A DNA stretch of 62,717 nt, filler included, from a candidate division TA06 bacterium SM23_40 (GCA_001303705.1; 6 parts of 6 records of this genome joined end to end with filler, not necessarily neighbours in it), one strand, 5' to 3'. Shown: positions 5,801-54,629, counted from the whole stretch's first letter. Notes: generated from the letters alone by a model not told the origin. Translations and numbers: made by a program.

Positions 5801-5939
5801 CGGGGACGTTGGTAGGTTCAGAAGGTTATGGCGGGGACGTTGGTAGGTTCAGAAGGTTATGGCCGGGGACGTACCCAGGTTTTGAAGGTTATTCCCCGGA
5901 GCGACGCAGGCGGGGACGTCGGCAGGTTGGGAACGTCTT
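5801..5939 (+). repeat. 28-bp dispersed repeat, cluster A (4 copies)
   Basis: 5802 and 5833 are GGGGACGTTGGTAGGTTCAGAAGGTTAT; 5865 is GGGGACGTACCCAGGTTTTGAAGGTTAT; 5912 is degenerate. Confidence 0.92.
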
Positions 5940-6040
5940 CTAGAGAAGGATGAAGTGGCCCGGGGCGCCGCGGCCGGAACGAGCGCACTGTGACATGGCC
6001 CGGGTCGGCGTCATGAGGCCAGTTCTGAGGGAGGGTTTGG

Positions 6041-6685
6041 ATGAAGATATTCATCGACACTGCCAATGTCGAGGAGATCCGAGAGGCTGCCAGCCTCGGA
6101 GTCCTCGATGGGGTGACAACCAATCCGACGCTCCTGTCAAAAGAGCAGGGAAGCTTTCGCGACATCCTAAAGCAGATTTGTGAGATCGTTGACGGTCCGG
6201 TGAGTGCGGAGGTGGTCGCATCCGATGCTGAGGGGATGGTCGCCGAAGCTCGTGAGTTATCCGCCATCCACAGCAACATCGTCATCAAGGTGCCGATGTC
6301 GAAGGAAGGGATGAAGGCAGTCCACCGCCTCAAGCAGGAGGGGATCCGCTGCAATATGACGCTGGTCTTCTCTCCCAATCAGGCGCTGCTCGCCGCCAAG
6401 GCGGGGGCTGCATTCGTCAGTCCTTTCGTCGGCCGTCTCGATGACATCAGCCACATCGGTATGGAGATCGTCGATCAGATCGTCGAGATCTTCAGCATCT
6501 ACGACATCGAGACACAGGTAATCGTCGCCAGCATCAGGAATCCCCTCCACGTCATCGATGCCGCGCTCACAGGCGCCGATGCTGCCACGATTCCGTTCAA
6601 GGTGATCGAGCAGATGGTGAAGCACCCGCTGACGACGATCGGGATCGAGCGATTTCTCGCCGACTGGCAGAAGGTGAGACAGTAG
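6041..6685 (+). CDS. fsa: Transaldolase / fructose-6-phosphate aldolase (short TalC/Fsa type)
   Basis: [24 protein letters not shown] (Schiff-base Lys) and SPFVGRLDD motifs. Confidence 0.93.
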
Positions 6686-6768
6686 GAGTTGAGCGCTATG
6701 GGGACGATGGTCGGCTGGCTCGAACAGTGGAGACGAAGAAACGGGCGAGCATCGAATCGTTGTGAGGA

Positions 6769-8016
6769 ATGATCGTGAAGGGACTGTACACAATAGGGAT
6801 TTTCCTGCTGGGAATAGCGTTTGGACTTGCCGGCGTCGGTGTGATGAGCATCCTCGGGCATCAGTCGACGTTTCCCGTCCTCGGCGCTTCTGCCCTCGGG
6901 CAGGTTCCCCCTGAGTCCGGAGCGGAGGCGGATGAGGGGGGCGCCGCGGCGGCAGTCGAAGGCATCGACGACATCACCGCATCGAGGGTCAATGCCATCG
7001 TGCGCGCCGCCCGGGAGGTCGGGCCCGCGGTGGTCTCGATCAGCGTGATCCAGACCCGTATTTACACCGTATCTCCGTTCACGGGTCCATTTAGGGATCC
7101 GTACTTCGATCAACTCTGGCGTGACCTGTTCCCTCCCCGGCGGTATCGGGAACAGATCACAAGCCAGGGCTCGGGCGTCATCATCGACTCGGATGGGCAT
7201 GTCCTGACCAACGACCATGTGGTGCACGGGGCTGAGGAGATCAAGGTGACGCTCGCCGATGGAAGGGTCTTCGACGGAGAGCTGATCGGGACCGACCCCT
7301 ACCTCGATCTGGCGTTGGTGAAGATTCAGAGCGAGGACATTCCGCACGCCCGGCTGGGAGACTCGGAGAGATTGATCATCGGCGAGTGGGCGATTGCCAT
7401 CGGCAACCCGTTCGCCTACTTCCTCGAGGATACCCAGCCGACGGTCACAGTCGGGGTGATCAGCGCCCTGCACCGGGCCATCAAGTCATCCGGCCGGAGC
7501 CGGGAACCCCAGATCTATGCGGATATGATCCAGACCGACGCCGCCATCAATCCCGGGAACTCCGGCGGCCCGCTTGTGAATGCAGCAGGAGAAGTGATCG
7601 GCATCAACACGTTCATCTTCACGGCTGGCGGCGGATCTGAGGGGGTGGGGTTTGCCAGGCCGATCAATGCCGCGAAGAAGATCCTGGGGGAGCTGAAAGA
7701 GTATGGTCGTGTGCGCGTGGCCTGGCTCGGCATCCGCGTTCAAGAGCTGACCCCGCTGCTGGCGGAGTCGCTCGAGATCGATAACCTCGATGGGCTTCTG
7801 GTCGCGAACATCGAGCAGGGGAGCCCCGCCGAGGGCGCTGGAGTGAGGCGAGGCGATATCATACGGACGATCGATGGCGAGCCCGTCGCCTCATTCACCG
7901 ACTGGCAGGTGGCTCTCCTCACTGTGCGCGTCGGGGACACGGTCGATCTTGCGCTTGAGCGCGACGGTCGGGGGCGCGTGGCGAGTATCAAGGCGGCTGA
8001 GTTCAAAGGAGACTAG
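6769..8016 (+). CDS. HtrA/DegP-family serine protease with one PDZ domain
   Basis: N-terminal hydrophobic anchor; catalytic triad motifs TNDHVV, DLALVK and INPGNSGG; C-terminal PDZ. Confidence 0.93.
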   Translation: MIVKGLYTIGIFLLGIAFGLAGVGVMSILGHQSTFPVLGASALGQVPPESGAEADEGGAAAAVEGIDDITASRVNAIVRAAREVGPAVVSISVIQTRIYTVSPFTGPFRDPYFDQLWRDLFPPRRYREQITSQGSGVIIDSDGHVLTNDHVVHGAEEIKVTLADGRVFDGELIGTDPYLDLALVKIQSEDIPHARLGDSERLIIGEWAIAIGNPFAYFLEDTQPTVTVGVISALHRAIKSSGRSREPQIYADMIQTDAAINPGNSGGPLVNAAGEVIGINTFIFTAGGGSEGVGFARPINAAKKILGELKEYGRVRVAWLGIRVQELTPLLAESLEIDNLDGLLVANIEQGSPAEGAGVRRGDIIRTIDGEPVASFTDWQVALLTVRVGDTVDLALERDGRGRVASIKAAEFKGD

Positions 8017-8023
8017 GTGCGCC

Positions 8024-12660: not shown

Positions 12661-13650
12661 ATGGACTTTGAGGCCACCCCTGGTCTGCGCAGCAGGCGTC
12701 ACCTTTGGAAGCAGCTTGCCGTCGAAATCGAACGCGCAGCCCGCTATCATCGCCCTCTTTCCGTGACCGTGTATGACGTGGATCATCTGGGAGCCTACAA
12801 TGAGAGGCACAGCAGGGAGGATGGGGATAAGGTGCTCGGGGAGATCGCGACGATACTCATCGCACAGACTCGTGCGGCCGACATTCCTGCGTACTATGGT
12901 GGAGGAACATTCGTCCTCGCGGTTCCGGAGGCCACAAAACATCAGGCATTCGGGCTCGCCGAGCGGGTGAGACGCATGGTCGAGTTCACATTCGCACCCG
13001 GGCGGAGGAGTCGCCACAAAGTGGCGGTGACGACGAGTGCCGGCGTATCGTCCTATCCTGCTGATGGAGAGGACCCGATGGAGCTGGTGAGAGCTGCGAG
13101 AAAGGCGATGAAAGCTGCGAAGAAAGCGGGTCGGAACGTCGTGATGAGCACACCCGAGGTGCCAGAGGTGGCCGTCCCCGTGGCTGCTAAGAGGGCCGCG
13201 GGGCCGAAGGCTGCCGCGAAGCCGAAGAAGGTTGCGAGGCCGAAGAAAGCAGCGAAGCGGGCCAAGCCGAAGCCGGCGGCGAGAGCTAGAAAGAAGGTAG
13301 CCGCCAGGCGGGCAGTGAAGAGGAAGCCGGCGAAGGCAAAGCGGGTGGGCACGAAGAGGGCGGCGAAGCCGAGGAAGGCGGCTGCCAGGCGTGTGAAGAA
13401 GAAGGCGGTGAAGAGGAAGCCGGCACGGGCGAAGAAGGTGACGAAGACGAAGAAGGCGACACGGGCGAAGAAGGCGACACGAGCCAAGAAGGTGACGAAG
13501 ACGAGGAAGGCGACGAAGGCGACGAAAACGAGGAAGACGTCAGTGAAGCGGCCGGCGAAGGGGGCCAGGTCGGCCAGGACGGCGAGGAGGACTGGCAAGA
13601 CGGTGACTAGGAGGGCTGGTCGATCCGCCAGGGGTGGGAAGAGGTCGTGA
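12661..13650 (+). CDS. Degenerate GGDEF domain fused to a Lys/Arg/Ala-rich histone-H1-like tail
   Basis: GGAGGTG RBS; DVDH and RAAD...YYGGGTF motifs; about 160-aa tail of AKPKK/AKKATR/KKVTKT repeats. Confidence 0.82.
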   Translation: MDFEATPGLRSRRHLWKQLAVEIERAARYHRPLSVTVYDVDHLGAYNERHSREDGDKVLGEIATILIAQTRAADIPAYYGGGTFVLAVPEATKHQAFGLAERVRRMVEFTFAPGRRSRHKVAVTTSAGVSSYPADGEDPMELVRAARKAMKAAKKAGRNVVMSTPEVPEVAVPVAAKRAAGPKAAAKPKKVARPKKAAKRAKPKPAARARKKVAARRAVKRKPAKAKRVGTKRAAKPRKAAARRVKKKAVKRKPARAKKVTKTKKATRAKKATRAKKVTKTRKATKATKTRKTSVKRPAKGARSARTARRTGKTVTRRAGRSARGGKRS

Positions 13651-24414: not shown

Positions 24415-24514
24415 NNNNNNNNNNNNNNNNNNNNNNNNNNNNNNNNNNNNNNNNNNNNTTAATTAATTAANNNNNNNNNNNNNNNNNNNNNNNNNNNNNN
24501 NNNNNNNNNNNNNN
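24415..24514. other. Artificial contig linker
   Basis: N44-TTAATTAATTAA-N44. Confidence 0.99.
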
Positions 24515-24533
24515 CATCTGAGCCTTTTCGCCA

Positions 24534-24602
24534 GAAACCTTCTCAACCTAACAATGTCCCCGAGGTTTTCCCGATAACCTTCAAAACCTTAGGTACGTGC
24601 CC
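24534..24602 (-). repeat. 28-bp dispersed repeat, cluster B (2 copies)
   Basis: Minus strand reads GGGCACGTACCTAAGGTTTTGAAGGTTAT then GGGGACATTGTTAGGTTGAGAAGGTTTC, beginning 6 nt after a stop codon. Confidence 0.85.
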
Positions 24603-24608
24603 GGGCTT

Positions 24609-26767: not shown

Positions 26768-26793
26768 CCGTTCCTCCTCTCTGCCTCTCTCCC

Positions 26794-26909
26794 GGGGACG
26801 TCCCCATCCGTAACCTTCAAGACCTTCAGTACGTCCCCACTAGTAACCTGCCAAACCTACCAACGTCCCCGGTGTTCTAGCGCACCAACGACCCCGGTGT
26901 TCTAGCGCA
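26794..26909 (-). repeat. 28-bp dispersed repeat, cluster C, with a 25-bp duplication of the gene end
   Basis: Full copies at 26810-26838 and 26843-26870, a partial GGGGTCGTTGG at 26885-26895, and the palindrome GGGGACGTCCCC at 26794. Confidence 0.88.
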
Positions 26910-33845: not shown

Positions 33846-33980
33846 GGAAAATAAGCGAAGCGCCCTCCCCGCGAGGCGGATTGCCCCGGCGGGAAGAGCG
33901 CATCTCGACCGGAAGATTGGAAGGATCACCCGGAGCCGCCCGGAATCCCGGCGTACCGCGACTGAACGAGCCGCCGCCTC

Positions 33981-36077: not shown

Positions 36078-36271
36078 CTCCTCCCTCTCTGCTACGGTTC
36101 CCGCAGCCTCACTACGCCATGGAAGCTAGTTTCGCACCGCCGCGCAAGCCGAATCTCAAAGCGCAGAGGCGGAGAATCCTCTGTTGCCGGATCCCCCGCC
36201 CCGGCCGCACACTGACAATGATTCGCTACGTAGACTCACAGCCGCCCTCTGGGGCAGGCCGAAGTCCGAGT

Positions 36272-38098: not shown

Positions 38099-38199
38099 TC
38101 TCCTGCGCTCCTTTCCCTTCAGATATCCACCCCTCTCTTCAGATGATCACCCGGACGCACCAGCAGCCGTTTGGGCGATCTGCTTTCCTTCTTCCCATC

Positions 38200-38430
38200 C
38201 CTGCCAATTCTCTGTCTTGCCGGCTATCTGTCCTGCCTGCTCTCCATCCCGAAACTGCCCGCCCCACTACTATGCGCCCTGACAACTGTCCATCCTGACA
38301 ACTCACCACTCTGACAACTCACCATCCTGACAACTGCCCGCGCTGCCCGACATCCATCGTGCCGGCTATCTGTCCTGCCGCCTATCTGTCCTCCCGACTA
38401 TCCATCCTCCCGATTATCCGTCCTGCCGCC
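38200..38430. repeat. Degenerate 16-bp tandem array
   Basis: (C/T)CTGACAACT units at 38278, 38294, 38310 and 38326, with CCTGCC..CTATCTGT-like units on both sides. Confidence 0.75.
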
Positions 38431-38475
38431 CCGGGTCTCCGGTACTGGCGATATCACGGGACCCGAGGGCACGCG

Positions 38476-40176: not shown

Positions 40177-40276
40177 NNNNNNNNNNNNNNNNNNNNNNNN
40201 NNNNNNNNNNNNNNNNNNNNTTAATTAATTAANNNNNNNNNNNNNNNNNNNNNNNNNNNNNNNNNNNNNNNNNNNN
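40177..40276. other. Artificial contig linker
   Basis: N44-TTAATTAATTAA-N44. Confidence 0.99.
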
Positions 40277-40781
40277 GGCAGCAGACCGTGGAGCAGAAGG
40301 GAGCGCCGGCATAGATATCACGGGAGCCGACGCACTGGATGAAGCCAATCCGCCGGGGGATCTGACCATCGAACGGTCTCATCGGGAGGCCGCCGAACGG
40401 GCCGGAGAAACTGAGGATGCGCTCGAACTCCATGCTCGATACGACGTCGAGACTCAAGGAGTACCCCAGGCCCCGCGCGCGGCTGGCATCGAACTCGCTC
40501 CCCCCCGGCGCGAGTATCACTGCACCTATATCAAGAGTTACCGTCTCCGGGATCTCATCATAGACGATTGCCCTGCGATCGCACTCGGCGAGACAGAGCC
40601 CACACCCGATACACCGGCGGCAGGCGAGACAGCGGCGGGCCTCGGCTACGGCTACCTCCTGGACGAACCCGAGATCGACCTCGGCGAACGGATCCTCTCG
40701 TTCCGTAGCCGGAGACTGCTGAGTTGTATGACGAGGAGATGGAATATCCTCGAAGTCAGGAACGAACTTCTTCTTCTTCAT
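40277..40781 (-). CDS. HdrA-like Fe-S flavoprotein fragment (3'-truncated)
   Basis: EARRCLAC, CIGCGLCLAEC, MEFERILS..GP..G and IQCVGSRD...CSTVCC motifs. Confidence 0.8.
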
Positions 40782-40791
40782 CGCCCTCGGC

Positions 40792-42492: not shown

Positions 42493-43276
42493 GACACTCG
42501 CCTCCTGCCCGCTCCGCAACAGCTTGCCAGAGCGGCGTAGTCTCTTTGATGTCACCGATATCGGCCAGACCGAGTCTTCGCAACTCAGCAAGATGGCGCA
42601 GCACGATGGCCGGCCGCCGTCCCAACATCTTCGCCAGATCGGTCGCCGAAACACCCCCTACCCTGCCGTCTTGCAGGATATGCATTATGAGGTGTTTCGC
42701 GTATTCGTCACCTGCGACCTCCTCGAACAGCCGCCCCAGCTCATGTTCAGTGAACATCTCGCCGTACAGATTGCCCTCGGCGTTGAACGCCGTTGCCTTC
42801 CCCGCGATCCAGCGGAGCTTTTTCCCCTCAACCGCCGTCTTGGCTGCTCTGAGCCTGAGGGCGAGCGGAAGGGAGTCTCCTCCTCCTCCGTCCAGTGGCC
42901 CTAGCTCATCTATAGTCGCGACGAACTCCGAGACATATGAGACGAACTTGGCCCCCTCAGCTGAAGACATCATCCTGAGTACGAGCCTCGCTGGATCGAT
43001 CCCCGACCGTGCGAGCACCCGGCGGGTCAGATCCATCTTGACCTTCGCCTCCAGATTGCCTGTCGAGTAGTGACATTCCCCCTCCAGGCAGGTGCCCACG
43101 AAGACACCGTCTGCCCCGCCGGCGAATGCCTCGATGACGAATGAGGGGTCGACCCGGCCCCCGCACATGACCCGGATGACCCGCACGTCTGTTGGATACT
43201 GGAGTCTCGCAACCCCGGCGAGATCTGCTGCTCCGTATGCTCACCAGTTACAGCAGAACGCGATGATCTTGCTCAT
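42482..43276 (-). CDS. mvhD: MvhD/FlpD [2Fe-2S] subunit with C-terminal extension; selenoprotein (Sec12)
   Basis: Reads MSKIIAFCCNW-TGA-AYGAADLAG...RVIRVMCGGRVDP...GTCLEGECHY, with the TGA (43241-43243) at the conserved Cys position. Confidence 0.88.
43201..43240 (-). promoter_or_regulatory. Putative bacterial SECIS element of mvhD
   Basis: Directly after the UGA: GGAG...TCTCGC-CGGGGTT-GCGAGA-CTCC stem-loop. Confidence 0.7.
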
Positions 43277-43388
43277 GAATCAGTCCTCTGAAAATCCACC
43301 GATGGCGATCGTCCCTTTCCCTTCCCCTCTACCCGTTCACATCCATGTATCTAGTTTCTATCAGTTGCTCACCCTCTTACTCACATCT

Positions 43389-43719
43389 CTCCGGTGAAGG
43401 TCTGTTCACGACTGACTCACCCTCAACTCTGGGGTGAAGCTCGAACCCGGCACTACGCCGCTCGATAACCTTCAAAACCCAGGTACGTCCCCGTAATCCG
43501 ATACAGAACCTACCAACGTCCCTCCGGTGAAGGTCTGTTCACGATTGACTCACCCTCATCTCTATCGTAAACCTCGAATCCGGGACTATCTCGCTCGATA
43601 ACCTTCAAAACCCAGGTACGTCCCCGCTCGACGGCCAGGATCATCCCGGAACCTTCTGAACCTACTAACGTCCCCGACCGGGGTCATCCCCGGAACCTTC
43701 TGAACCTACCAACGTCCCC
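43389..43719 (-). repeat. 28-bp dispersed repeat, cluster D (4 full + 1 partial), embedded in a ~105-bp direct duplication with 133-bp period
   Basis: Copies at 43465, 43504 (partial), 43598, 43648 and 43692; CTCCGGTGAAGGTCTGTTCACGA starts at both 43389 and 43522. Confidence 0.92.
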
Positions 43720-43721
43720 GG

Positions 43722-45401
43722 TTATTGTTGGAAGGCGGCGCGGATCTGGGCGACGAACTGCTCGTCTGTGAAGTGGCTCATCCGGATCGCCCTGCGATAG
43801 CAGCTCGCTCCGCACACTCCGCACCCTTTGCATGCTGCTTCGTGCATCTTCGCCTTCGGCCCACGGGGGGTTTCAACGATTTCGATGGCGCCGTACGGGC
43901 AGAGATCCCGACATAAGCCACACCCTCGACAGAGTTCCTCATCGGCCAGGATGGAGATGAGCGGCTCTACGCATACCGAACCGCGCATCAGGGGCACCGC
44001 CGCCCTGGCCGCAACACCGCGGGCCTGCGAGATGCTCTCCTCGATGCTCGCCGGCCACCGCGCGGTGCCGCAGACGAAGATCCCATCCGTTGCGAAGTCA
44101 AGGGGCCTCAGTTTCAGATGGGCCTCGAGAAAGAAGTGGTGCTCGTCCAGGGCGACTTTGAGCATCCTGCTCATCTCCTGTGCCCCCTCCGGCGCCACCA
44201 ATGGGGATGAGAGGACGACGATATCAGGCGTGAGTTCGAGTGTCCGGGCCAGCACGGGGCCCCAGACGACAACGCGGCCGTCTTCCACGGCCGGGGGCGC
44301 ATCGGGCGCATAGTTGACGAATCGAACACCGACCTCCTTCGCCTCCTGAAGCAACTGCTCGTACCTGACCCCGATCGTCATGAGATCGCGGTACAGCACC
44401 CACACTCTCGTGTTCGGATTGCGACGCCGCAGAAGAACGGCGTTCTTGAGCGCTGCGGCACAACAGATACGAGAACAGTACACACGATCCGGCATCCTCG
44501 ACCCGGCGCAGAGAATCATGACGACTTCAACCGCGTCCGGTCCTCCCGCTGCCAGCACTCGTTCGAACTCGAGCTGCGTGACGACACGCTCCCCGTCATA
44601 CCCCATGATTCCCTCAGGGACGAGTTCATCTGCGCCGGTGGCGACGACTATGACGCCGACCCTGATAGGAGTGATCTCTCCGCCCCGCTGCCTCACCTGT
44701 ACGTCGTACTTCCCGATATATCCTGCCACACCTGCCACCTCGCTGCCCACCAGAACGTTCACCCTGGGGTGCTCGCGAACCGCATTCGCCGCCTCCATCA
44801 GTATCTCCGATGCGGGCAGATCGGCGGGATAGATTGAATGGATGTGACGGAGCAACCCTCCCAGTTCCTCCTCGCGCTCCACGAGGTAGACCTCGCACCC
44901 CAGCTCGGCAAGATGGTAGGCTACCGTCATCCCCGCAATACCGCCCCCGATGACGAGAGCCCTCGGCTCGACTCCGACGACGATCTCGTCTTTGGGCTCC
45001 AGAAAGGCAGCACGAGCTACCCCCATCCGCACCAGATCCTTCGCCTTCCCGGTAGCCGGCTCTGGCTCGCTTTTGTGCACCCAGGAGCAGTGCTCTCTTA
45101 TGTTCACGAACTCGAACAGGAACTTGTTGAGTCCCGCATCCTGACAGGCGGCGCGGAAGATGGGCTCGTGAGTCCGGGGCGTACACGCCGCGACCACAAC
45201 CCGATTCAGATCGTGCTCCTGAATGCCGCGGCGGATCTCGGCAACGCCGGCCTCCGAGCAGGTGAAGAGATTTTCCTGCACGAGAACAACGCCGGGAAGT
45301 CCCCGAGCATACTCGGCCACCTCAGCTGTGTCGAGAAAGCCGGCGATGTTCGTGCCGCATTTGCAGACGAAGACGCCTATCCGCAGTTCATCTTCCGCCA
45401 C
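43722..45401 (-). CDS. hdrA: Heterodisulfide reductase subunit A-like protein
   Basis: IGVFVCKCGTNIAG, VVAACTPRTHE, NIREHCSWVH, GGGIAG and CSRICC motifs; C-terminal 2x[4Fe-4S] ferredoxin. Confidence 0.9.
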   Translation of the reverse strand: MAEDELRIGVFVCKCGTNIAGFLDTAEVAEYARGLPGVVLVQENLFTCSEAGVAEIRRGIQEHDLNRVVVAACTPRTHEPIFRAACQDAGLNKFLFEFVNIREHCSWVHKSEPEPATGKAKDLVRMGVARAAFLEPKDEIVVGVEPRALVIGGGIAGMTVAYHLAELGCEVYLVEREEELGGLLRHIHSIYPADLPASEILMEAANAVREHPRVNVLVGSEVAGVAGYIGKYDVQVRQRGGEITPIRVGVIVVATGADELVPEGIMGYDGERVVTQLEFERVLAAGGPDAVEVVMILCAGSRMPDRVYCSRICCAAALKNAVLLRRRNPNTRVWVLYRDLMTIGVRYEQLLQEAKEVGVRFVNYAPDAPPAVEDGRVVVWGPVLARTLELTPDIVVLSSPLVAPEGAQEMSRMLKVALDEHHFFLEAHLKLRPLDFATDGIFVCGTARWPASIEESISQARGVAARAAVPLMRGSVCVEPLISILADEELCRGCGLCRDLCPYGAIEIVETPRGPKAKMHEAACKGCGVCGASCYRRAIRMSHFTDEQFVAQIRAAFQQ

Positions 45402-45495
45402 GCTTCTACTCCGTTAGTAACGGCCAACTCCAAGATCCGGCAACGCCGATCTCTGCACACGTGTCGCGATCGACTCGAACTGCCCCGCTCCCACT

Positions 45496-46785
45496 CTACT
45501 TCCGACACACCACGATCCGGGCGGCCAGGGCAGCAGCCGCGCTCGCCTGGCAGACCGACTCCGGGATATCCGCCGGCCCGCGGCAGAATCCGCAGGCGAA
45601 GATGCCCTCCACACTCGTCTCCTCACCAGAGCGGCCATTGCCTCTGATGAACCCGTGCTCATCCACCTCCAGGGTCAATAGACGCGCGATCTCGGCCGTT
45701 CCCCTGCTGGGGACCGCCGCGGTCGCCAGAACGACGAGATCGACCGTGAGGCTGGAGACGGCGCCCGTCCTTGTGTCTTCAAACCAGAGCACAGGGTTGT
45801 GCTCGTCGTCTTCCGTGATCTCGGCCACTCTGCCTCGTATGTACTCTATCCCGTAGTCCTCCTCCCCCCGGATCTGGTACCGCTGGAACCACTTACCGGC
45901 ATTGCGAAAATCAGTATGGAATATGTATGACATCGACTTCGGATCGTGCTCCCGCGCCAGCATCGCATCCTTGATCGAACACATGCAGCAGATACTCGAA
46001 CAGTAGTTGCAGTAGCGCGTATCACGCGATCCGACACACTGGACGTACCCGACCCGCTCAGCCAGCTTCCCATCAGAGGGGCGGAGAAGGTGTCCCTGGG
46101 TCGGGCCGGTGGCATTGATGAGCCGCTCATACTCCAGGCCCGTGATCACGTTGGGGATCCGTCCGTACCCATACTCAACGAGCTGCGAGGGATCGAACAG
46201 ATCGAGACCGGTGGCAACAACGATGGCGCCCACATCGAGCTCGACATCTCTCTCCGACTGCTCGAAGTCAATGGCCTCCCTCTCACAGACCCGTTCGCAG
46301 ACACGGCACTTCCCTTTTTCGAAATATATGCATGCGTCAGGGTCGATTGTCATTACTGCCGGGATTCCCTGGGCGAAGTAGAGGTAGATGGCGCGCCGCT
46401 CCCGGAGCGTCATATCGAACTCGTCCGGAACCTTCTTGGGACACTTCTCGACGCAGAGGCCGCAGGCGGTACAGCGTTCTTCATCGACGTACCGCGCGCG
46501 CCGGCGCACCTTCACCCTGAAGTCACCGACTGATCCCGACACGTCGATGACATCGCTGTAGGCGAGGAGCTCAATCCTGGGATGCCGACCGGCATCCAAC
46601 ATCTTCGGCGCCAGGATTCATATCGAGCAGTCGTTCGTGGGAAAGGTCTTGTCGAGCTGGGACATCCGCCCGCCGATACTCGGCTTCGATTCGACGAGGT
46701 GGACGTCGATCCCCATCTCGGCAAGATCGAGCGACGCCTGAATTCCGGCGATTCCGCCGCCTATCACCAGCACACCCTTACCCAT
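45496..46785 (-). CDS. hdrA: Heterodisulfide reductase subunit A-like selenoprotein (Sec56)
   Basis: Reads [14 protein letters not shown]...[22 protein letters not shown], with the TGA (46618-46620) at the conserved Cys; inserted ferredoxin; CSSICC motif. Confidence 0.9.
46573..46617 (-). promoter_or_regulatory. Putative bacterial SECIS element of hdrA
   Basis: Directly after the UGA: ATCCTG...GGATGCC-GGTC-GGCATCC-CAGGAT, a two-stem hairpin. Confidence 0.78.
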
Positions 46786-46823
46786 CAATCATATCCTCTA
46801 CGTGCGTACCGCTCCTTCCCGAC

Positions 46824-47793
46824 TCAGCCCTCCTTCAGGGCCTCGGCCAACAGACTGAGAAGATCCTGCATCTCGATCTTCACGTCTGTGTCATCATTCC
46901 GCAACGCACATGAAAGATGTATCCGACACTTGGGGCAGGCAGTGATGAGATGTTCGGCTCCGGATGCCCCTGCCTGCCGCAGCCTCTCTACCTGGATCGC
47001 CTTGTTGGCCGCCGTGCAGTTCATCCATCCGCTCGATCCGCAGCAGATCGCATTCTCCATCGTCTCCTTCATCTCGACGAGCTCGACCTCCGGCAACGCA
47101 CGGATGAGCTCCCGCGGCTGCTCGTACACCCCCGAGAATCTCCCCAGCCGACACGGATCCTGGTATGTGACGATCCGGGGTGTCGGGCTGAATTCGAGAC
47201 GCCCCTCCCTAACGGCCTCGACGAGCAGGTCGAAGATGTGGACGACCTCGACACCCAGGTCCCCGAGCTGCTCGGGATACACCGCCTTGAGCATGTGATA
47301 GCACTCGGGACAGGATACGACGACCCTGCGCGCACCCGAGCTCCGGATGAAGTCGAGATTGCGGCGACCCAGTTCACGAAACGTTTCGACATCCCCTGCC
47401 CAGAAGGGATCGTGCCCGCAACACCGCTCCTCATTGGAGACGATGGGCTGAATGCCGAGATGATTGAGGAGACGCACAGTATCTCGCGCCGCCCCGGTCA
47501 GGCTTATCGACAGATCCTCGAAGATGGTATCGAAGTACGGAGCACACCCGACGAAGTAGAGATATTCCCCCTCAGTTGCCGTCTGCAACGTGTCGTCGAT
47601 CCAGTCGAGTCTCCTCTGATCCAGGCCCCAGCCCTGGATCTCCATCATGTCCAGAACCACGCGCCCATGGGTATGGACAGGGGCGCTCTCTCTGGCCGCC
47701 GACTCGACGCGCATCAGCCTCATGAACTCCGTGAACCCTACGCCTGCCGGGCAGCGGCCCTCGCAGGCCCGGCAGGTGAGGCAGGACCAGAGA
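46824..47793 (-). CDS. HdrD/GlcF-like Fe-S oxidoreductase with two CCG domains (5'-truncated)
   Basis: WSCLTCRACEGRCP, ERCCG, SCPEC, YQDPCRLGR, ICCG and TACPKC motifs. Confidence 0.88.
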
Positions 47794-47893
47794 NNNNNNN
47801 NNNNNNNNNNNNNNNNNNNNNNNNNNNNNNNNNNNNNTTAATTAATTAANNNNNNNNNNNNNNNNNNNNNNNNNNNNNNNNNNNNNNNNNNNN
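47794..47893. other. Artificial contig linker
   Basis: N44-TTAATTAATTAA-N44. Confidence 0.99.
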
Positions 47894-47894
47894 C

Positions 47895-48929
47895 GGCGGA
47901 GGGCTTTACTGTTGGAGCTCTTCTCCTAGCATTGTGGGGAACACGATCGCCGGGAATGTCGCCGCCGAGGGTGGGGGCGGCATCCGATGCTACGGCGACG
48001 CCGCTCCGACTATCGAAGGGAACGCCATCGTGGGGAACACGGCCGCGGTCGGCGGCGGTGGAGTGTGCTGCTGGGACCATTCCTCGCCGCTCATGGTTGG
48101 GAACAGAATCTCGGGGAATACCACAGGGAGCGGCGGCGGCATTTACTGCTACGACAACTCTTCCCCGATTATCGTGGGCAACACGATCGTGGGAAACAAT
48201 GCGGAGTACGGGGGAGGCATTCGCTGCCGCGACTCCTCTTCTCCGGTGATCGTCGGCTGCACGTTTGCGGACAACTGGGCTGGGGGGTACGGCGGGGCAA
48301 TCCACAACTATAGTTCCTCTCCGATAGTGATCAGCACAATCCTCTGGGGGGATAGTGCCGGAACGGCTGGTGCGGAGATCTACTCGGTGGGCGTCGATAC
48401 GGTTGTCGTTTCCTATTCAGATGTGGAGGGCGGGTGGCCGGGCGAAGGCAACATCGACGCCGACCCGACGTTCGTACTGGCATCCGAGCGAGACTACCGA
48501 CTCCTCTGGCATTCGCCCTGCATCGATGCTGGACATCCTGACTCCCTGGATCCCGACGCCACGAGGAGCGACATGGGTGCGTTCTTCTTCGACCAGGACG
48601 ACTACCTTACACTCTACCTGACGCCTGATGCTATGGTGGTGTCGCAGGGTGAGGAGCTTGGTGTGACGTATACTGTCATCAATCGGTGGGCGCAGCCGGA
48701 AGCGTTCTGGGTACTGGCGGAGGCGGCCCTTCCAGGCGGGGGCACCCTGAACGTCTTCGGACCTGATCAGTACATACTGCCTGCCGACGCCATTGTGCAG
48801 CGCCATCTTAGTCACTCGGTGCCCGGCTCAGCGCCGCTCGGCATGTACGGGTACCGTTCCAGGATCGGGGTGCCTCCCTCTTCACTCTATGATGAGGATA
48901 GCTTCAGGTTCGTTGTCGTCGAGCCGTAA
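47895..48929 (+). CDS. Parallel beta-helix protein with the shared C-terminal module (5'-truncated)
   Basis: GGGI.C repeats, GNIDADP and SPCIDAG, then LYLTPD...HSVPGSAPLGMY...LYDEDSFRF. Confidence 0.82.
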   Translation, partial: GGGLYCWSSSPSIVGNTIAGNVAAEGGGGIRCYGDAAPTIEGNAIVGNTAAVGGGGVCCWDHSSPLMVGNRISGNTTGSGGGIYCYDNSSPIIVGNTIVGNNAEYGGGIRCRDSSSPVIVGCTFADNWAGGYGGAIHNYSSSPIVISTILWGDSAGTAGAEIYSVGVDTVVVSYSDVEGGWPGEGNIDADPTFVLASERDYRLLWHSPCIDAGHPDSLDPDATRSDMGAFFFDQDDYLTLYLTPDAMVVSQGEELGVTYTVINRWAQPEAFWVLAEAALPGGGTLNVFGPDQYILPADAIVQRHLSHSVPGSAPLGMYGYRSRIGVPPSSLYDEDSFRFVVVEP

Positions 48930-49313
48930 CATGCGCGGACGTTGGTGGCTGACGTGGGCGGTCTGCTCGGTCCATAATCGAGAGCAGGGGAGCGCGGGTC
49001 CCCCGAATCCAGAGGGTGGATATGAGGGGATCGGGTCAGAGGTCAGTACGGCCGAGGCTGGGGTGTGCCTCTGTCCGGGGCTGCACTCGGCATGTTGCAG
49101 GCTTTTCCCGGGTTGCTGCAGGGATCTTGGACGACAGACGGATACGAGCGTGATGTGATCTACCCGAGCGCCAAAGCTGCTTGGGTGTTTTTTGCTGCGG
49201 GTGGTGAGCGTGTGAAGTCGATCTCCACTACGACTTGGAAGGCTCTGTGGGGAGACGCGTCCGCTGTCGGCTTCCTTTGAGATGTTGAGAGTGGGAGGCG
49301 AAACCGAGCGCTG

Positions 49314-49505
49314 GTGAGCATCTCAGGGACTGTGCTTCACGTGCCGTGCCAGCATCCGACCATTCAGGCCGGGATCGATGCGCGAGTGGACGGAGACACG
49401 GTACTGGTGGCGCCTGGTACCTACACCGGCAGTGGGAATCGGGATCCGGACTTCAATAGTAAGGCGATTGTGGTGAGATCATCGCAGGGCCCTGAGTCCA
49501 GATGA
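49314..49505 (+). pseudogene. Remnant of a beta-helix paralog N-terminus
   Basis: VLHVPCQHPTIQAGIDARVDGDTVLVAPGTYTGSGNRD matches the paralog N-termini, but there is no signal peptide and it stops after 63 aa. Confidence 0.75.
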
Positions 49506-49915
49506 AATAGGCGACACGTACGTTGGCCGCTCGAAGGCGACTGAGCGCCTCGTGATGAGGCGCTCGATGTCGTACATAGAAAGACGGGGCCCGCCACTTC
49601 TCCCTTGACGGATGGTCTGGTATATGACAGTCTCGACTTCTACAAGAACGTCGGTTTCGCCCGAAGATACGCCGCGCGCAGCGAAGACGACCATAGATGT
49701 GGGTTAACATCTGCGCCTGAAGGCGTGTATTCGTCTCCATGTAGGATACGTCGCTTCGACGTTGGAGTCGATTATAGTCTGATTCGGGATAACCCTTCGT
49801 CTGTAGTGGCGAACAATAGACTGCATGCCTAAACAGAGGCGCCCATGCGTGGCACGCCGAACGGAGTCGAATCCTGATCGGCGAAGATCCCGTTTGAGTG
49901 CCCGAGGAGGACTTC

Positions 49916-50215
49916 ATGGTGAGTGGAGGAGCGGCAGGAGCAACAGCTGCGGTGGCGGGCGCCGCCGCGGTGATCGCGCAAGCCATCAAGGCCTCTGGGG
50001 TCATCGTGCGCGTCGATGCCCGGGATTTTGTCTCCATTCTTTCAAGGAACAAAGAGCCTCTCGTTGTAGTAGCACAAGGTAGATGGCCTAACAGGGGCTA
50101 CCAATACCTCACGAGCTACAAGGGGTTGGCGTTCTTCACGAAGTGCAAAGAGCCCCTGCAGCTGCCAGGCGTGGCTGAACTCATCACGGCGAGGAGCATC
50201 TGGATTCCGGGATAG
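49916..50215 (+). CDS. Small hypothetical protein with an Ala-rich N-terminus
   Basis: GAGGAGG RBS and a plausible 99-aa globular sequence (YQYLTSYKGLAFFTK). Confidence 0.7.
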   Translation: MVSGGAAGATAAVAGAAAVIAQAIKASGVIVRVDARDFVSILSRNKEPLVVVAQGRWPNRGYQYLTSYKGLAFFTKCKEPLQLPGVAELITARSIWIPG

Positions 50216-50388
50216 GATGTTTCAATCCCCGTCCGACCGACCCGAAAGGTTGCGCCGTCGCCGCCTCCCCCAACAGCGTTAGATGGCTACCTGTGAGGAC
50301 CTGATGCTGACGGTTGCGCTGCTACTGTTCCCCGTCGCGACAGCACTGGATAGCAGTCCCTTCAGGGCCCAATATCGGAGGAGACCTT

Positions 50389-50775
50389 ATGTTCGCCGTT
50401 CTGCTCGTCGTAACGTTCGTGATCGCTGTGCTGGTTTCCTTTGTCGTGGTGAGGCTGTTCGAAAAACCGATCAGAGCCATCCTCGGACGGATCGTCTCAG
50501 AGGAACTCAGCAAGGCCTGGGAGCGGTACCTCAAGTTCGCCATCTATGTAGTAGGGGTGTCGGGTGGCGTACGCGTATGGGAGCTGGAGAAGTACATCAC
50601 GCCTCAGGGCGAAGAGACAGAGCCCATTGTCCTCAATGCAGCACGGTGGACTCTGGAGGTCTATCGGACGATCATCGGGACCCTGCAGAGCGTCGCGTGG
50701 ATGCTTCTCGTCTTCTTCCTATTTGCGCTCATCGCATACGTGATAGTCCGCGGGCGTGAGCACAAGCAGGCGTGA
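50389..50775 (+). CDS. Hypothetical membrane protein (about 3 TM helices)
   Basis: GGAGGAG RBS and clear hydrophobic helices. Confidence 0.75.
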   Translation: MFAVLLVVTFVIAVLVSFVVVRLFEKPIRAILGRIVSEELSKAWERYLKFAIYVVGVSGGVRVWELEKYITPQGEETEPIVLNAARWTLEVYRTIIGTLQSVAWMLLVFFLFALIAYVIVRGREHKQA

Positions 50776-50781
50776 GCCTGA

Positions 50782-50827
50782 GGGACGTACGGGAGTGTCG
50801 GGGACGTTGGTAGGTTCAGAAGGTTAT
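50782..50827 (+). repeat. 28-bp dispersed repeat, cluster E
   Basis: Partial GGGACGTAC at 50782 and an exact type-1 copy at 50800-50827. Confidence 0.88.
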
Positions 50828-51054
50828 CGACGGGTTCGGTATGCGAGCTCTCCCTCGGTCGCCTGTGCCCGGCAGATCCGAGCAGGATCGGGATCGAGGA
50901 GTAGGTACGGGGAGACACAACATACTAGAGATCTCCCGCAGTGTGGGATCTCGTTGGGATCTCTCTGCCGCAAGGTCTGACTTTCGCTGGGACGATTCGC
51001 AGAGGGACAAGTTTCAATCGGGAGCGACTCAGGGTAAGCTGGAGTTATGAGAGG

Positions 51055-51735
51055 ATGGCACAACAGGATGAACAGATAGATAGAGAGGCTATTGCCGCGG
51101 AGATCGATGCGGAGATCAGGGCGTTGCGGGCGAAGCCAAAGACGCAGGATGTGCGGGCCGTCCGCCGCAAGTTCTCCAGACGCCTCAAGAACGTTGCCGC
51201 TGAGGAGGTCATCGGTGTGGCCTGGCAGCTTCTCACCCGGCACGGGCGCCGCTGGGTGGCCTATGAATTGATCTACAAACATACCTCAGCGCTTCGCAGC
51301 CTGAGGCCGAGGCAGATCAAGCAGTTCGGGCGTGGGATCAACAGCTGGGGATCTACAGACGTATTTGCCGGCTATCTGTCTGGACCTGCCTGGCGTGAGG
51401 GGCAGCTGTCGGACAGGACGATTCAGGGCTGGGCTCGTTCAGGGAATCGGTGGTGGCGGCGCGCAGCGCTGGTCAGCACTACGGCACTCAATGTCAAAGC
51501 CCGGGGTGGAAGGGGGGATGTTCCCCGCACACTGAAGGTCTGCTGCATCCTCGTGGACGACCGTGACGACATGGTGGTGAAGGCCATGTCGTGGGCGCTG
51601 CGCGAGCTCGTTCAGCACGACCCGAAGGCAGTCCGTGGCTTTCTCGCGAAACATGAGGATGCACTGGCTGCACGGGTGAAGCGTGAGGTGAGGAACAAAC
51701 TTACGACGGGCCTGAAGAACCCGCGCCGGAGGTGA
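51055..51735 (+). CDS. DNA alkylation repair (AlkD-like HEAT) family protein
   Basis: INSWGSTD, WARSGNRWWRRAALVS and DMVVKAMSWALREL motifs. Confidence 0.82.
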   Translation: MAQQDEQIDREAIAAEIDAEIRALRAKPKTQDVRAVRRKFSRRLKNVAAEEVIGVAWQLLTRHGRRWVAYELIYKHTSALRSLRPRQIKQFGRGINSWGSTDVFAGYLSGPAWREGQLSDRTIQGWARSGNRWWRRAALVSTTALNVKARGGRGDVPRTLKVCCILVDDRDDMVVKAMSWALRELVQHDPKAVRGFLAKHEDALAARVKREVRNKLTTGLKNPRRR

Positions 51736-51864
51736 GTTCGGGGTCGTTGGCGTGGCCTTGTTGACTCGCGTTTTCGCAACTAAATCTAGGGTGGCGGTGA
51801 ATCTGTAATCCATTATTATTTGCTTTGAAGGCCAGATCGCGGCCAAGACATCAGGAGGACTAGA

Positions 51865-52257
51865 TTGAATTGCCCTGTCTGCAGACAGCCCATGATCGTC
51901 CTGGAGCTCGACCAGGTGGAGATAGACCACTGCACCACGTGCGGAGGCATATGGCTTGATGCCGGAGAACTTGAGCTTCTGCTTGGTGACTCTGTCGAAA
52001 AGGACGGGTTTCTTGCATCGTTTGAGGCGGATGCCGCTGGCGGAGAGAAGCACAGAAGGTGTCCAATATGTTCGAAAAAGATGGAAAAGGTCGTCTGCGG
52101 GGCAGAGAAGAGAGTCCGGATCGATAGGTGTCGACGGAATGACGGCATCTGGCTGGACGAAGGTGAGCTCGAGGAGATCGTCACGTTGAGCAGTCTGGGC
52201 CGGCATAATCGCGTCCTGGACCTGCTCAAGGATATGTTCGCAAAGAAAGCGCAATGA
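51865..52257 (+). CDS. Double zinc-ribbon (zf-TFIIB-like) protein
   Basis: Two CPxC...ID.C..(C/N).GIWLD.GELE repeats; AGGAGG RBS and TTG start. Confidence 0.85.
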   Translation: MNCPVCRQPMIVLELDQVEIDHCTTCGGIWLDAGELELLLGDSVEKDGFLASFEADAAGGEKHRRCPICSKKMEKVVCGAEKRVRIDRCRRNDGIWLDEGELEEIVTLSSLGRHNRVLDLLKDMFAKKAQ

Positions 52258-52283
52258 GATGATGAGATGAAAGGAGGGCCAAG

Positions 52284-52841
52284 ATGGTCTTTGGACTGAT
52301 AGTGCTGGCAGTTGTCATTGTAGCTGTGTTCGGGTTTATCGGGATCTACAATTCCCTGATACAGCTGAGGAACCGAGTGAAGAACGCGTGGTCACAGATC
52401 GATGTCCAGCTGAAGAGGCGACACGACCTCATCCCGAATCTGGTGGAGACCGCCAAGGGATACATGAAGCATGAAAGGGAGACACTTGAAAACGTTACGC
52501 AGGCAAGGAGCAGGGCGGTCGGCGCCGGAACCGTGGGCGAGAAGTCGAAGGCCGAGGGCGCTCTGAGCGGCGCCATAGGCAGATTCATGCTGGTTGTTGA
52601 GAATTACCCCGACCTGAAGGCGAATCAGAACTTTCTGGCGTTACAGGAAGAACTGACGGCAACAGAGAACAGGATCGGGTTTGCCAGGCAGAGCTACAAC
52701 GATCAGGTGCTCTTCTTCAACAACAAAATCCAGATGTTTCCCTCGAACATAGTAGCCGGGATGTTCAGCTTCAGGGCGGAAGAGTTTTTCGAGATCGAAG
52801 AAGAGGCGGAACGAGCAGTACCGAAGGTGAGTTTCTCGTGA
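52284..52841 (+). CDS. lemA: LemA family protein
   Basis: N-terminal TM helix; [21 protein letters not shown] and ENYPDLKAN motifs. Confidence 0.95.
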
Positions 52842-52943
52842 TCGCCTCCGGTGATCTGGGTTGCCAGTCCATCGAGGGCCGCGTATGTCACAATGTAGCG
52901 GCCAAGGATCGATAGCATGTCGGCCCGCTGTGAGTAGATAGCC

Positions 52944-54434
52944 ATGTGGGAATTGATACAGGCAAATAAGAGGAAATCTCTCATACTCTTCGCGTGTATG
53001 GGGATGTGCCTTATTCTGCTTGGGTATTTCGTAGGTGCAGCCTTCTTCTATCCTGATGGCGGGATCATAGGTGTTGGCATCGCCGTGGGCATATGGGTCG
53101 TCATGTCTCTCATAAGTTATGTCTCCGGTGATTCGATTCTTCTCGCCGTGAGCCACGCTCAAGAGGTCTCTCATGACGTTCACCCGCAACTTTTCAATGT
53201 CGTTGAAGAGATGAAGATCGCGGCGAACTGCCCCGCCATGCCGAAAGTGTACATCATTGACGAGGCGGCGCCCAATGCGTTTGCGACGGGGACGAAGCCC
53301 GAAAAGAGTGCGATTGCCGTAACCGCCGGGTTGCTCTCGAGGCTGAATAGAGATGAACTCCAGGGGGTCATCGCACATGAGATGTCTCACATTGTGAACA
53401 GAGATGTGCTGTTTGTGACGTTCGCCGGGATGCTGCTGGGGGGCATCGTTCTTCTGTCCCATGCCTTTCTGAGGGGTCTGTGGCTGTCTTCCGGGTCATC
53501 GAGGAGGTATCGTTCCGGAGTGAAGGGAGGAGGACAAGCTCAGATAATCATCCTCGCGGTCGCGATTGTCCTTGCTATACTCGCTCCGATACTGGCTCGG
53601 CTCCTCTACTTCGCCATATCGCGAAAGAGGGAGTATCTGGCCGATGCATCGGGGGTGAGGCTGACCAGATATCCTGAGGGCCTCGCTTCCGCCCTGGAGA
53701 AGATCTCGTCGTCGAGATACGAACTCGGTTCGGCCAACAAGGTCACAGCTCCGATGTACATCATCAACCCTCTGGAACGGAAGGGGATGAGACTCTCGAA
53801 TCTCAGTAGCACGCATCCGCCTACCTCCGAGAGGATACGGATTCTGCGGAGTATGATGCACGGGGCAGGCTACGGGGACTATCAGAAGGCGTACTCTAGT
53901 GTGAGGGGGAGGATTTCTCCTCTTATCCCGGTATCAGAGCTGCGACGCAGCGAAACGACGCCGATACGAGAAGCTTCTGTCGAGGAAGAGGAGGCTGTAG
54001 ACAAAAAGAAGGGATTGAGAGATCTCGGAGACCTCGTCAGGGCGGTCAACAAATATGCATTCTTGATCTGCGCCTGTGGGCTGAAGATTAAAGTGCCGCC
54101 CGATTTCAAAGGAACTAAAGTACCGTGTCCACGTTGTGGACGCGAAATGGTGCTACCGATCGCTGAACTGGCGGCTGCCAGCGCGGCAATCGAAGCTGCG
54201 GAGGCGGCGGAGGAGAAGAAGGCGGCCGGCCAGGCCGCCGCCCCCGGTGAGCTGGTCTATGTGAAAAAAGGGCAGGGATGGGAGAGCTTCACCTGTGCTT
54301 GTGGCAGGTTATTGCAGATCTCCCCCGCGTTCCGTGGTTCGCACCTCGTCTGCAGCACCTGCGGCAGGACGACCGAGATCAAGTATCAAGAACAGGATGC
54401 CGACCTTCAACTCTCCGGCTCCACCAAAAACTGA
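52944..54434 (+). CDS. htpX: HtpX-like M48 zinc metalloprotease with two C-terminal zinc-ribbon motifs
   Basis: PNAFATG, HEMSH, ISRKREYLAD and STHPP motifs; C-terminal CACG...CPRCG and CACG...CSTCG. Confidence 0.88.
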   Translation: MWELIQANKRKSLILFACMGMCLILLGYFVGAAFFYPDGGIIGVGIAVGIWVVMSLISYVSGDSILLAVSHAQEVSHDVHPQLFNVVEEMKIAANCPAMPKVYIIDEAAPNAFATGTKPEKSAIAVTAGLLSRLNRDELQGVIAHEMSHIVNRDVLFVTFAGMLLGGIVLLSHAFLRGLWLSSGSSRRYRSGVKGGGQAQIIILAVAIVLAILAPILARLLYFAISRKREYLADASGVRLTRYPEGLASALEKISSSRYELGSANKVTAPMYIINPLERKGMRLSNLSSTHPPTSERIRILRSMMHGAGYGDYQKAYSSVRGRISPLIPVSELRRSETTPIREASVEEEEAVDKKKGLRDLGDLVRAVNKYAFLICACGLKIKVPPDFKGTKVPCPRCGREMVLPIAELAAASAAIEAAEAAEEKKAAGQAAAPGELVYVKKGQGWESFTCACGRLLQISPAFRGSHLVCSTCGRTTEIKYQEQDADLQLSGSTKN

Positions 54435-54629
54435 AACCGGGGACCTTGGTGAAACCGGGGACGTTGGTAGGTTCAGAAGGTTGAGCCAGGGGACGTACCT
54501 GGGTTTTGAGGGTTATTGATGCTCGGGCGTACGGGACGTACCTAGTTCTGACGGTTATTGATGACTGTGTGCAAGAGCCAGGGACGCGGTATGCAAGAGC
54601 CGGGGACGTTGGTAGGTTCTGAAGGCTGC
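54432..54629 (+). repeat. 28-bp dispersed repeat, cluster G (4 full + 2 partial)
   Basis: Copies at 54457, 54489, 54532 and 54602; partials at 54439 and 54580, each within a short flank duplication. Confidence 0.92.

Follow-up and report, generated by a model that had tools for sequence, protein, structure and literature searches.

A two-subtype 28-bp repeat adjoining stop codons in candidate division TA06 bacterium SM23_40 and its relation to the ends of TIRYT-type elements in other genomes

The stretch of DNA analysed here (the window; 62,717 nt from candidate division TA06 bacterium SM23_40, GCA_001303705.1) consists of six contigs joined through N44-TTAATTAATTAA-N44 spacers and carries a family of 28-bp repeats of two subtypes that lie just 3' of stop codons. 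The repeats are gathered in six clusters on four of the contigs (Table 1), and gene identities around them were taken from Pfam searches of 57 open reading frames (ORFs) in the window. Among the upstream genes named in the original prediction, a model's reading of the sequence, truA, one beta-helix gene and an hdrA-like gene were recovered; the second "beta-helix" gene is not one by Pfam, the "membrane protein" is an unannotated ORF of 153 aa, and "htpX" is a gene for an M48 peptidase. In this study we describe the arrangement of the repeats and trace their counterpart to the ends of transposon-like elements in other genomes.

A profile of the 28-mer, built with nhmmer from 13 window copies, returned 21 matches at E<=10. 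The 18 matches with E<1, which we accepted as copies, all fall within the six clusters, and the remaining three (E>2) are scattered outside them and were taken as noise. This agrees well with the about 17 full and several partial copies in six clusters on four contigs that had been predicted. Searches with the two 28-mers as originally quoted, allowing up to three mismatches, gave six and four matches against none in 100 shuffles each, and a looser pattern (up to six substitutions) gave 16 matches in the window, again all within the clusters. The nhmmer list divides into 11 copies of type 1 (GGGGACGTTGGTAGGTTCAGAAGGTTAT), nine of them full-length and two truncated or degenerate (5912-5933 and 43504-43522), and seven copies of type 2 (GGGGACGTACCTGGGTTTTGAAGGTTAT and variants). 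Both subtypes had been said to occur in every cluster, which holds for five of the six; at 50782-50827 type 2 is represented only by an 11-nt stub. Identical type 1 28-mers occur on different contigs (5802, 5833 and 50800), and the type 2 copies at 43465 and 43598 are identical to each other. Each cluster keeps to one strand, all 18 copies being direct within their own cluster, and positions 11-14 of the unit read GTAG. Copies stand 3-24 nt apart, or as much as 105 nt in cluster 4, at irregular distances, as predicted, and the gaps are themselves partly duplicated; a CRISPR array, with identical repeats at regular intervals and unique spacers of about 30-40 nt, was therefore rejected.

Clusters had been predicted to begin 2-15 nt past a stop codon, and in every case a stop codon does stand close by: the distance to the first recognisable stub is 2, 6-7, 6, 2, 6 and 4 nt in the six clusters, and the distance to the first profile copy is 2-31 nt. 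When this placement was compared with a uniform one across the five complete intergenic regions, Fisher tests gave p=0.010 with profile copies only and p=2e-4 with stubs included. The strand of the cluster is that of the upstream gene in six of six cases (p=0.031; p=0.125 when counted by contig, of which there are only four), so that the predicted co-orientation was reproduced. In the five clusters with both neighbours known, the neighbours are co-directional with each other and with the repeats. A tabulation against GC skew, proposed together with the original prediction, showed that the sign of the skew matches the repeat strand at all six clusters, the positive-skew strand bearing the GGGG. 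Since gene direction, GC-skew sign and repeat strand coincide on every contig, effects of transcription and of replication are inseparable here.

Placement of this kind would be expected of an RNA-level signal in 3' untranslated or intercistronic regions, whether it serves binding or processing, acts against Rho as a G-rich tract or stalls ribosomes, as the original prediction had partly proposed. Repetitive extragenic palindromes (REPs) close to stop codons have been reported to cause ribosome stalling in E. coli. That copies follow the direction of transcription in six of six clusters, starting 2-7 nt past stops, and that all clusters with two known neighbours lie between co-directional genes are consistent with such a signal, which we nevertheless consider very unlikely on several grounds. 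A search of the whole window against Rfam at gathering thresholds returned a tRNA-Leu only, and a permissive search (E<=5) of three clusters returned nothing relevant. Folded as DNA, eight cluster strands performed no better than shuffles (z from -1.35 to +0.49), in keeping with the predicted lack of a REP-like palindrome. A scan of all clusters found neither promoter-like nor terminator-like sites inside any of them, so that an intrinsic terminator (a G+C-rich stem-loop followed by a T run) was rejected as a candidate; the four terminator-like sites in 50700-54900 are all outside the clusters. Elsewhere, moreover, the sequence is found in either orientation and on both sides of a transposase gene.

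This second setting of the repeat was found by a single pattern scan of genome contigs with GGGGACGTNNNNRGGTTNNGAAGGTT, a pattern that fits both subtypes. The scan located 36 loci in 18 metagenome-assembled genome (MAG) assemblies labelled Deltaproteobacteria, Syntrophobacterales, Desulfobacterales, Geobacteraceae, Nitrospiraceae and similar. The sequence reads GGGGACGTTGGTAGGTT(TT/AT)GAAGGTT(AT/TT) in these genomes, with a 26-mer that is invariant or nearly so; type 1 of the window is identical to it at 26 of 28 positions and differs at positions 18-19. Profile counts on 31 non-redundant loci (five overlapping loci being left out) gave 67 matches, including 25 convergent pairs with GGGG outward; the shortest paired element, in L035, is a perfect hairpin of 63 nt, and the longest has 1204 nt. 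The long elements hold a single gene of about 321-324 aa. Two of these ORFs were scanned with Pfam and matched Y1_Tnp (43.8 and 24.6 bits, cut-off 23) and Bac_DnaA_C (35.7 and 31.9 bits, cut-off 31.5), and the NCBIfam model REP_Tyr_transpos (NF047646) scored 60.8 and 73.2 bits, under its cut-off of 80. Their translations contain NHFHLL and RYIHLNP, which we take to be the HUH motif and the Tyr motif of the transposase. Searches with tblastn identified six full transposase copies (two in L001 and one each in L005, L010, L023 and L036), all beside the repeat and within inverted pairs, and transposase fragments in L012, L016 and L026, also beside the repeat. The 28-mer is the end sequence of transposon-like elements in other genomes that encode a Y1-HUH protein with a helix-turn-helix (HTH) domain.

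The terminal-inverted-repeat layout, together with a TA that by eye is frequent just outside both element ends, could also be that of miniature inverted-repeat transposable elements (MITEs) of a TA-targeting DDE transposon (IS630/mariner-like), and sites of a tyrosine recombinase or an integron were weighed alongside. The two scanned element ORFs, having Y1_Tnp and Bac_DnaA_C and no DDE or integrase domain, speak against all of these, as does the recovery of the same protein by tblastn in four other full elements. Inspection by eye of the elements in other genomes revealed no consistent target-site duplication, and the folding test gave no sign of an attC-like imperfect palindrome in the unit. 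A tyrosine recombinase had been one of the enzymes originally suggested, and none lies beside any copy in the window or among the scanned repeat-flanked ORFs. Consequently, we regard such an origin as extremely improbable.

Relatives of the element transposase are plentiful, with 7979 of 8000 scored candidates at E<=1e-20, and include a homologue in the cultured Deferrisoma camini. Many of them stand on contigs of their own of 1064-1072 nt, which is the length of the element (1067 nt at L036 4440-5506) and the assembly picture of a multi-copy element. A sequence search of the PDB with the protein gave no matches, and a plasmid search gave 28 distant partial records, all with less than 60% identity and none covering 80% of the query. 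At one and the same helicase site, L036 has the full 1067-nt element and L017 has a pair of ends only (4323-4442); at a DsbA-like gene, L025 has an ends-only pair (5221-5392) and L036 a full element. The ends-only pairs at orthologous sites measure 120-172 nt, and the comparison suggests in-place decay or exchange. In L001, a duplication with a period of 150 nt (2228-2440) covers the left end of one element and the opening ~30 codons of its transposase gene.

To judge by sequence, the end is conserved across distant hosts and the lineage of the window is distinct from the MAGs with full elements. The PurB protein of the window has one relative at 80% identity and otherwise at most 61% identity to named proteins, from many phyla, and C-terminal domains of the type IX secretion system (T9SS) type were found in the window with Pfam. 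Horizontal spread of the element would be the likeliest explanation of the conservation of its ends.

Placement at stop codons is a property of the other genomes as well. Using crude ORF calls, and counting orthologous, non-independent sites (L025/L032 and L017/L036), we found 16 of 60 ends at -3 to +20 nt from the end of a co-directional frame of at least 100 codons, against 6.8% for a null of intergenic-like positions (p=2e-6), and 10 of 60 ends at -1 to 0 of such a frame end, against 0.6% (p=3e-12). With a preceding TA, the end provides stops in all three inward frames within 21 nt (TAG at -1 to 1, TAG at 12-14 and TGA at 19-21), at which ORFs end six, one and three times, respectively; four further ORFs have a stop of their own that directly abuts the end. 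Orthologous genes in different MAGs, namely the helicase gene (L017/L036) and the DsbA-like gene (L025/L036), end at the same residue beside the element. Because the end residue is the same in orthologues, insertion at a stop codon is favoured over truncation of the gene. The GGGG end thus adjoins the stop codon in both lineages.

The two lineages also share short tandem duplications that comprise 7-13 nt of upstream flank and the first 7-13 nt of the repeat (Table 1). The unit at 26859-26909, for example, is composed of the last 4 nt of the gene, the stop, the flank and repeat positions 1-11/12. L007, a paralogue of L024, is without the duplication, and a sixth candidate (50776-50810) is weak, its score being reached by 111 of 5000 controls. 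All right boundaries fall within repeat positions 7-13; the two subtypes are distinguished by the block at positions 9-13, in which type 2 copies also vary among themselves. Of five left boundaries inspected by eye, three lie directly after a CT dinucleotide, and the available text of PMC8266576 has REP-associated tyrosine transposases (RAYTs) cleaving at CT dinucleotides. The recurrence of the boundaries suggests that positions 7-13 are a break zone, and since they lie at fixed repeat positions in two unrelated lineages, a site-specific process is indicated.

Duplication in the window takes many sizes, with local periods of 13, 18, ~22, 25, 31, 44 and 133 nt. In cluster 4, the 44-nt period includes a small G+C-rich hairpin (CCGGGG..CCCCGG; CCGGGGATGACCCCGG) directly after type 1 (43676-43691), which is weakened in the second 44-nt unit (43626-43647). 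The region 43360-43625 (minus strand) is a 133-nt tandem duplication of a type 2 copy and ~105 nt of unique sequence, whose copies are 88.6% alike over 105 nt; no further copy of this unit was found in the rest of the window or in the fetched loci. One of its copies contains a truncated type 1 and the other an unrelated-looking sequence at the same place. The 11 nt upstream of this truncated type 1 (43523-43533, CTTCACCGGAG) resemble a flank in L003, from a Syntrophobacterales MAG (2462-2472, CTTCATCAGAG), and blastn matches the two flanks over 27 nt at 92.6%; the likeness may reflect a longer end variant or chance. The stub GGGGACGTCCCC in cluster 3 (26794-26805) is a perfect 12-nt palindrome centred on ACGT and resembles two repeat heads placed head-to-head. 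The type 2 block (TACC..) is similar to the reverse complement of type 1 positions 8-13 (TTGGTA giving TACCAA). The predicted inverted block has one difference from the copy at 5865 and two from the commonest type 2, so that a derivation of type 2 as type 1 with positions 8-13 inverted was not adopted and is recorded as a remark only; the likeness may have arisen by inversion or repair within the break zone, or by chance.

The several local duplications of different periods (13 to 133 nt), the lack of inverted partners and of folding, and the lack of an enzyme gene in the window would all suit arrays that are now immobile relics or domesticated protein-binding sites, seeded by an ancestral TIRYT (the transposase class with which we compare the elements below), grown since by local tandem duplication only, and persisting through a helix-turn-helix protein on the A(C/G)GTT boxes or through neutrality. 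We find this rather unlikely, given that identical 28-mers are present on different contigs and at 43465 and 43598, that the same two subtypes are found together at five or six unlinked loci, and that duplications in two unrelated lineages end time and again at fixed places within the repeat. The original prediction spoke of an actively spreading element. The identical copies on different contigs would fit that description, but the arrays have grown in large part by local tandem duplication, and active spread stays unproven.

The class to which the elements of other genomes compare has been described. Subclass 2.1 of the TnpA_REP proteins consists, in the available text of Quentin et al. 2018 (PMC6006769), of long Y1 proteins with a C-terminal Bac_DnaA_C, HTH_23 or HTH_28 domain; it is the second largest subclass, present in 14.9% of strains, and is equated with the TIRYTs of Di Nocera et al. 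2013 (PMC3733652). According to the available text of the latter, TIRYT genes are flanked by long terminal inverted repeats, some with GGGGWSAS, and the repeats may form moderately abundant families with members that are single, paired or grouped. The elements agree with TIRYTs/TIRtrons in a Y1 HUH domain joined to a C-terminal helix-turn-helix of Bac_DnaA_C type, in the position of the gene between long inverted repeats beginning with GGGG (six full elements in other genomes), and in repeats that are grouped in the window and paired or single in the other genomes. The window copies differ in being head-to-tail only and non-folding, in having two subtypes and in lacking an enzyme gene nearby, and neither the abutment to stop codons nor the flank and stub duplications are in the published description as far as its available text goes. 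The term TIRYT was found in the literature searched only in these two papers, whose available text gives no mechanism, binding site, cleavage site or target rule for the class. Matches to 14-15-mers of the repeat were absent from the main texts of the literature searched. A match to the terminus of a known insertion sequence or REP family had been named as grounds for abandoning the original prediction: the class of TIRYT-associated inverted repeats is indeed published, and this particular sequence was not found in print in main texts. The class is thus known and this end sequence undescribed, as far as main texts show.

Other systems share part of these features. REP/REPIN-RAYT systems (Nunvar 2010; Bertels and Rainey 2011; Corneloup et al. 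2021, PMC8266576, in its available text) have short intergenic repeats mostly 3' of genes. They also have a Y1 enzyme gene flanked by repeats in inverted orientation, and the inverted doublets of the other genomes (25 convergent pairs) resemble REPINs; GTAG is present, as is CT at three of five duplication left boundaries. However, the unit here is non-palindromic, with GTAG internal instead of at the 5' foot of a hairpin, the window is without inverted doublets (18 of 18 copies direct), and the enzyme scores under the cut-off of the RAYT model and is multi-copy (two on the L001 contig), unlike the typically single-copy RAYT. In IS200/IS605 elements, as described in the available text of PMC8266576 and PMC6006769, the ends are direct on one strand, a short guide-like block sets the two similar ends apart, and elements insert strand-specifically in connection with replication. 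These elements (IS608, ISDra2) have the Y1_Tnp catalytic domain in common with ours, whereas the window units lack subterminal hairpins and the full elements elsewhere have true inverted ends of 26-28 nt and an extra helix-turn-helix in the transposase. Enterobacterial bacterial interspersed mosaic elements (BIMEs) likewise combine two repeat subtypes clustered in intergenic regions at gene 3' ends, but REPs alternate in orientation there and the window clusters are uniform.

Taken together, we believe that the 28-mers of the window are probably end sequences, that is, recognition or processing sites, of a TIRYT-type element, here as enzyme-less, non-autonomous head-to-tail arrays. The original prediction had offered a HUH/RAYT-type enzyme acting in trans, and the association of the repeat with terminal inverted repeats of Y1 elements elsewhere supports this part of it. 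As also predicted, no candidate enzyme lies in the window, where tblastn with two TIRYT proteins gave a best E of 0.59 and Pfam matched no transposase or recombinase in the 57 ORFs. A TIRYT encoded elsewhere in the genome would bind the repeats and nick the G-rich strand within positions 8-13 (TTGGTA). Strand transfer, or repair or replication restart at the nicks, would then add units head-to-tail, and the same processing of nicks would leave the flank and stub duplications behind. New loci would be seeded directly 3' of stop codons through a preference of the enzyme for a short target there combined with selection against other insertions. Uniform orientation might follow from single-strand processing, as with the active strand of IS200/IS605 on the lagging-strand template, or from selection against the C-rich orientation inside transcripts. 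Type 2 would be a break-zone variant that possibly serves as the other end, its guide-like block being different, as in IS608.

A number of observations weigh against assigning the arrays to a TIRYT in this way. The absence of a TIRYT or transposase gene from the 62.7-kb window means that a trans-acting enzyme has to be assumed, and none of the 36 loci is from the window's own genome. All window copies are direct, in arrays that show no folding, and they could be immobile relics if the enzyme requires a hairpin built from paired ends, as the inverted pairs elsewhere suggest. Type 2 (GGG[GA]ACGTAC) is absent from the 36 loci, where two unrelated partial matches were the only returns, and its putative link to the enzyme is one of sequence similarity only. 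Duplication boundaries are the sole pointer to the candidate nick site, and slippage of the polymerase at a protein roadblock would produce such duplications equally well. On none of the four contigs can orientation be separated from gene direction and GC skew, and among unpaired copies elsewhere only seven of ten are co-directional with the gene on the GGGG side. Finally, the repeat starts with GGGGACGT, which agrees with GGGGWSAS at six of eight positions (7-8 differ), a motif that only some published repeats share in the available text.

A bolder version of the TIRYT assignment does without hairpins. In it, the 28-mer alone would be a complete TIRYT site, and this lineage would have a stop-targeting, two-type, one-directional system. 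As a joint claim we hold it to be distinctly unlikely. Binding would perhaps involve the DnaA-like domain on the A(C/G)GTT boxes, with a nick within positions 8-13; the family would have evolved to land exactly on stops, its end with TA closing three frames; and types 1 and 2 would act like the left and right ends of IS200/IS605, giving head-to-tail arrays at gene 3' ends.

Other features of the window bear on the neighbourhood of the clusters or are unrelated to them. The beta-helix ORF (25064-26767) and the ORF with the T9SS tail (24609-25058) lie in tandem on the minus strand with only a stop and a few bases between them, and represent either a split gene or two genes. A large family of paralogous beta-helix/Ig-like surface proteins with FlgD_ig or Por_Secre_tail C-termini is encoded at 24595-32539, 55578-57065 and 58628-61510; 28-mer clusters follow two of the four paralogue ends on contig 2 and are missing from the other two, whose stops are at 28939 and 30674. 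Between two M14 carboxypeptidase genes, 38211-38428 holds three adjacent 16-nt tandem arrays (1.9, 3.6 and 5.2 copies; 80-86% matches) that are unrelated to the 28-mer. The GGDEF-domain ORF 12661-13650 contains an GAAGAAGG-rich repeat with an 18-nt period (13302-13583), probably a coding low-complexity region.

Table 1. Coordinates of contigs, repeat clusters and their units, upstream genes, and flank and stub duplications. Positions are those of the window unless a locus of another genome is named.
Feature	Position	Strand	Description
Contigs	1-24414, 24515-32539, 32640-40176, 40277-47793, 47894-55265, 55366-62717
Spacers	24415-24514, 32540-32639, 40177-40276, 47794-47893, 55266-55365		Reported as a repeat family by repeat finders
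Cluster 1	5787..5939	+	Between truA (5058-5786) and transaldolase gene (6041-6685)
Cluster 1, stub	5789-5795
Cluster 1, type 1	5802-5829, 5833-5860
Cluster 1, type 2	5865-5892
Cluster 1, degenerate type 1	5912-5939
Cluster 1, period-31 array	5800-5872
Cluster 2	24534..24601	-	3' of T9SS-tail gene ending at 24609; contig end 19 nt beyond
Cluster 2, degenerate type 2	24575-24601
Cluster 2, type 1	24535-24561
Cluster 3	26794..26909	-	Occupies 134-nt gap between genes 26902-28830 and 25064-26767
Cluster 3, type 1	26843-26870
Cluster 3, type 2	26810-26838
Cluster 3, stub	26794-26805		GGGGACGTCCCC
Cluster 4	43465..43719	-	2 nt past stop of hdrA-like gene (43722-45401); mvhD-like gene downstream
Cluster 4, type 1	43692-43719, 43648-43675
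Cluster 4, type 2	43598-43625, 43465-43492
Cluster 4, truncated type 1	43504-43522
Cluster 5	50782..50827	+	6 nt past stop of ORF 50314-50775
Cluster 5, type-2-like stub	50782-50792		11 nt
Cluster 5, type 1	50800-50827
Cluster 6	54439..54629	+	4 nt past stop of M48 peptidase gene (52944-54434)
Cluster 6, type 1	54457-54484, 54602-54629
Cluster 6, type 2	54489-54516
Cluster 6, degenerate type 2	54533-54557
Upstream gene, cluster 1	5058-5786	+	truA (Pfam)
Upstream gene, cluster 2	24609-25058 and 25064-26767	-	NosD/beta-helix protein with T9SS-type tail (Pfam); in-frame stop between
Upstream gene, cluster 3	26902-28830	-	He_PIG/Big_9/FlgD_ig protein (Pfam)
Upstream gene, cluster 4	43722-45401	-	HdrA-like flavoprotein (Pfam)
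Upstream gene, cluster 5	50314-50775	+	Unannotated 153-aa ORF (Pfam)
Upstream gene, cluster 6	52944-54434	+	M48 peptidase (Pfam)
Flank and stub duplication	26859-26909		25 nt, 2.0 copies, 96% matches; right boundary 11/12
Flank and stub duplication	54432-54468		18 nt, 94% matches; stop, flank and positions 1-11/12; right boundary 11/12
Flank and stub duplication	54570-54614		~22 nt; 0/5000 controls; right boundary 13
Flank and stub duplication	5783-5808		13 nt; 0/5000 controls; right boundary 7
Flank and stub duplication, L024	9974-10011		18 nt, 100%; right boundary 9-11
Flank and stub duplication, L010	9972-10007		18 nt, 100%; right boundary 7

The assignment of the 28-mers to TIRYT ends offers several testable handles on this class of enzymes. 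The site of 26-28 nt is conserved in lineages that are not related to one another, and its positions 7-13 are a candidate break zone. Types 1 and 2 supply two naturally occurring versions of the site with differences in this zone alone, and the abutment of stop codons provides a precise target rule. If the hairpin-free version were true, the arrays could be co-opted as a strand-specific mark for replication or transcription. Confirmation of the handles would show how a hairpin-independent Y1 enzyme chooses its DNA, and it would explain a class of short repeats that is left unlabelled in the annotation of metagenome genomes.

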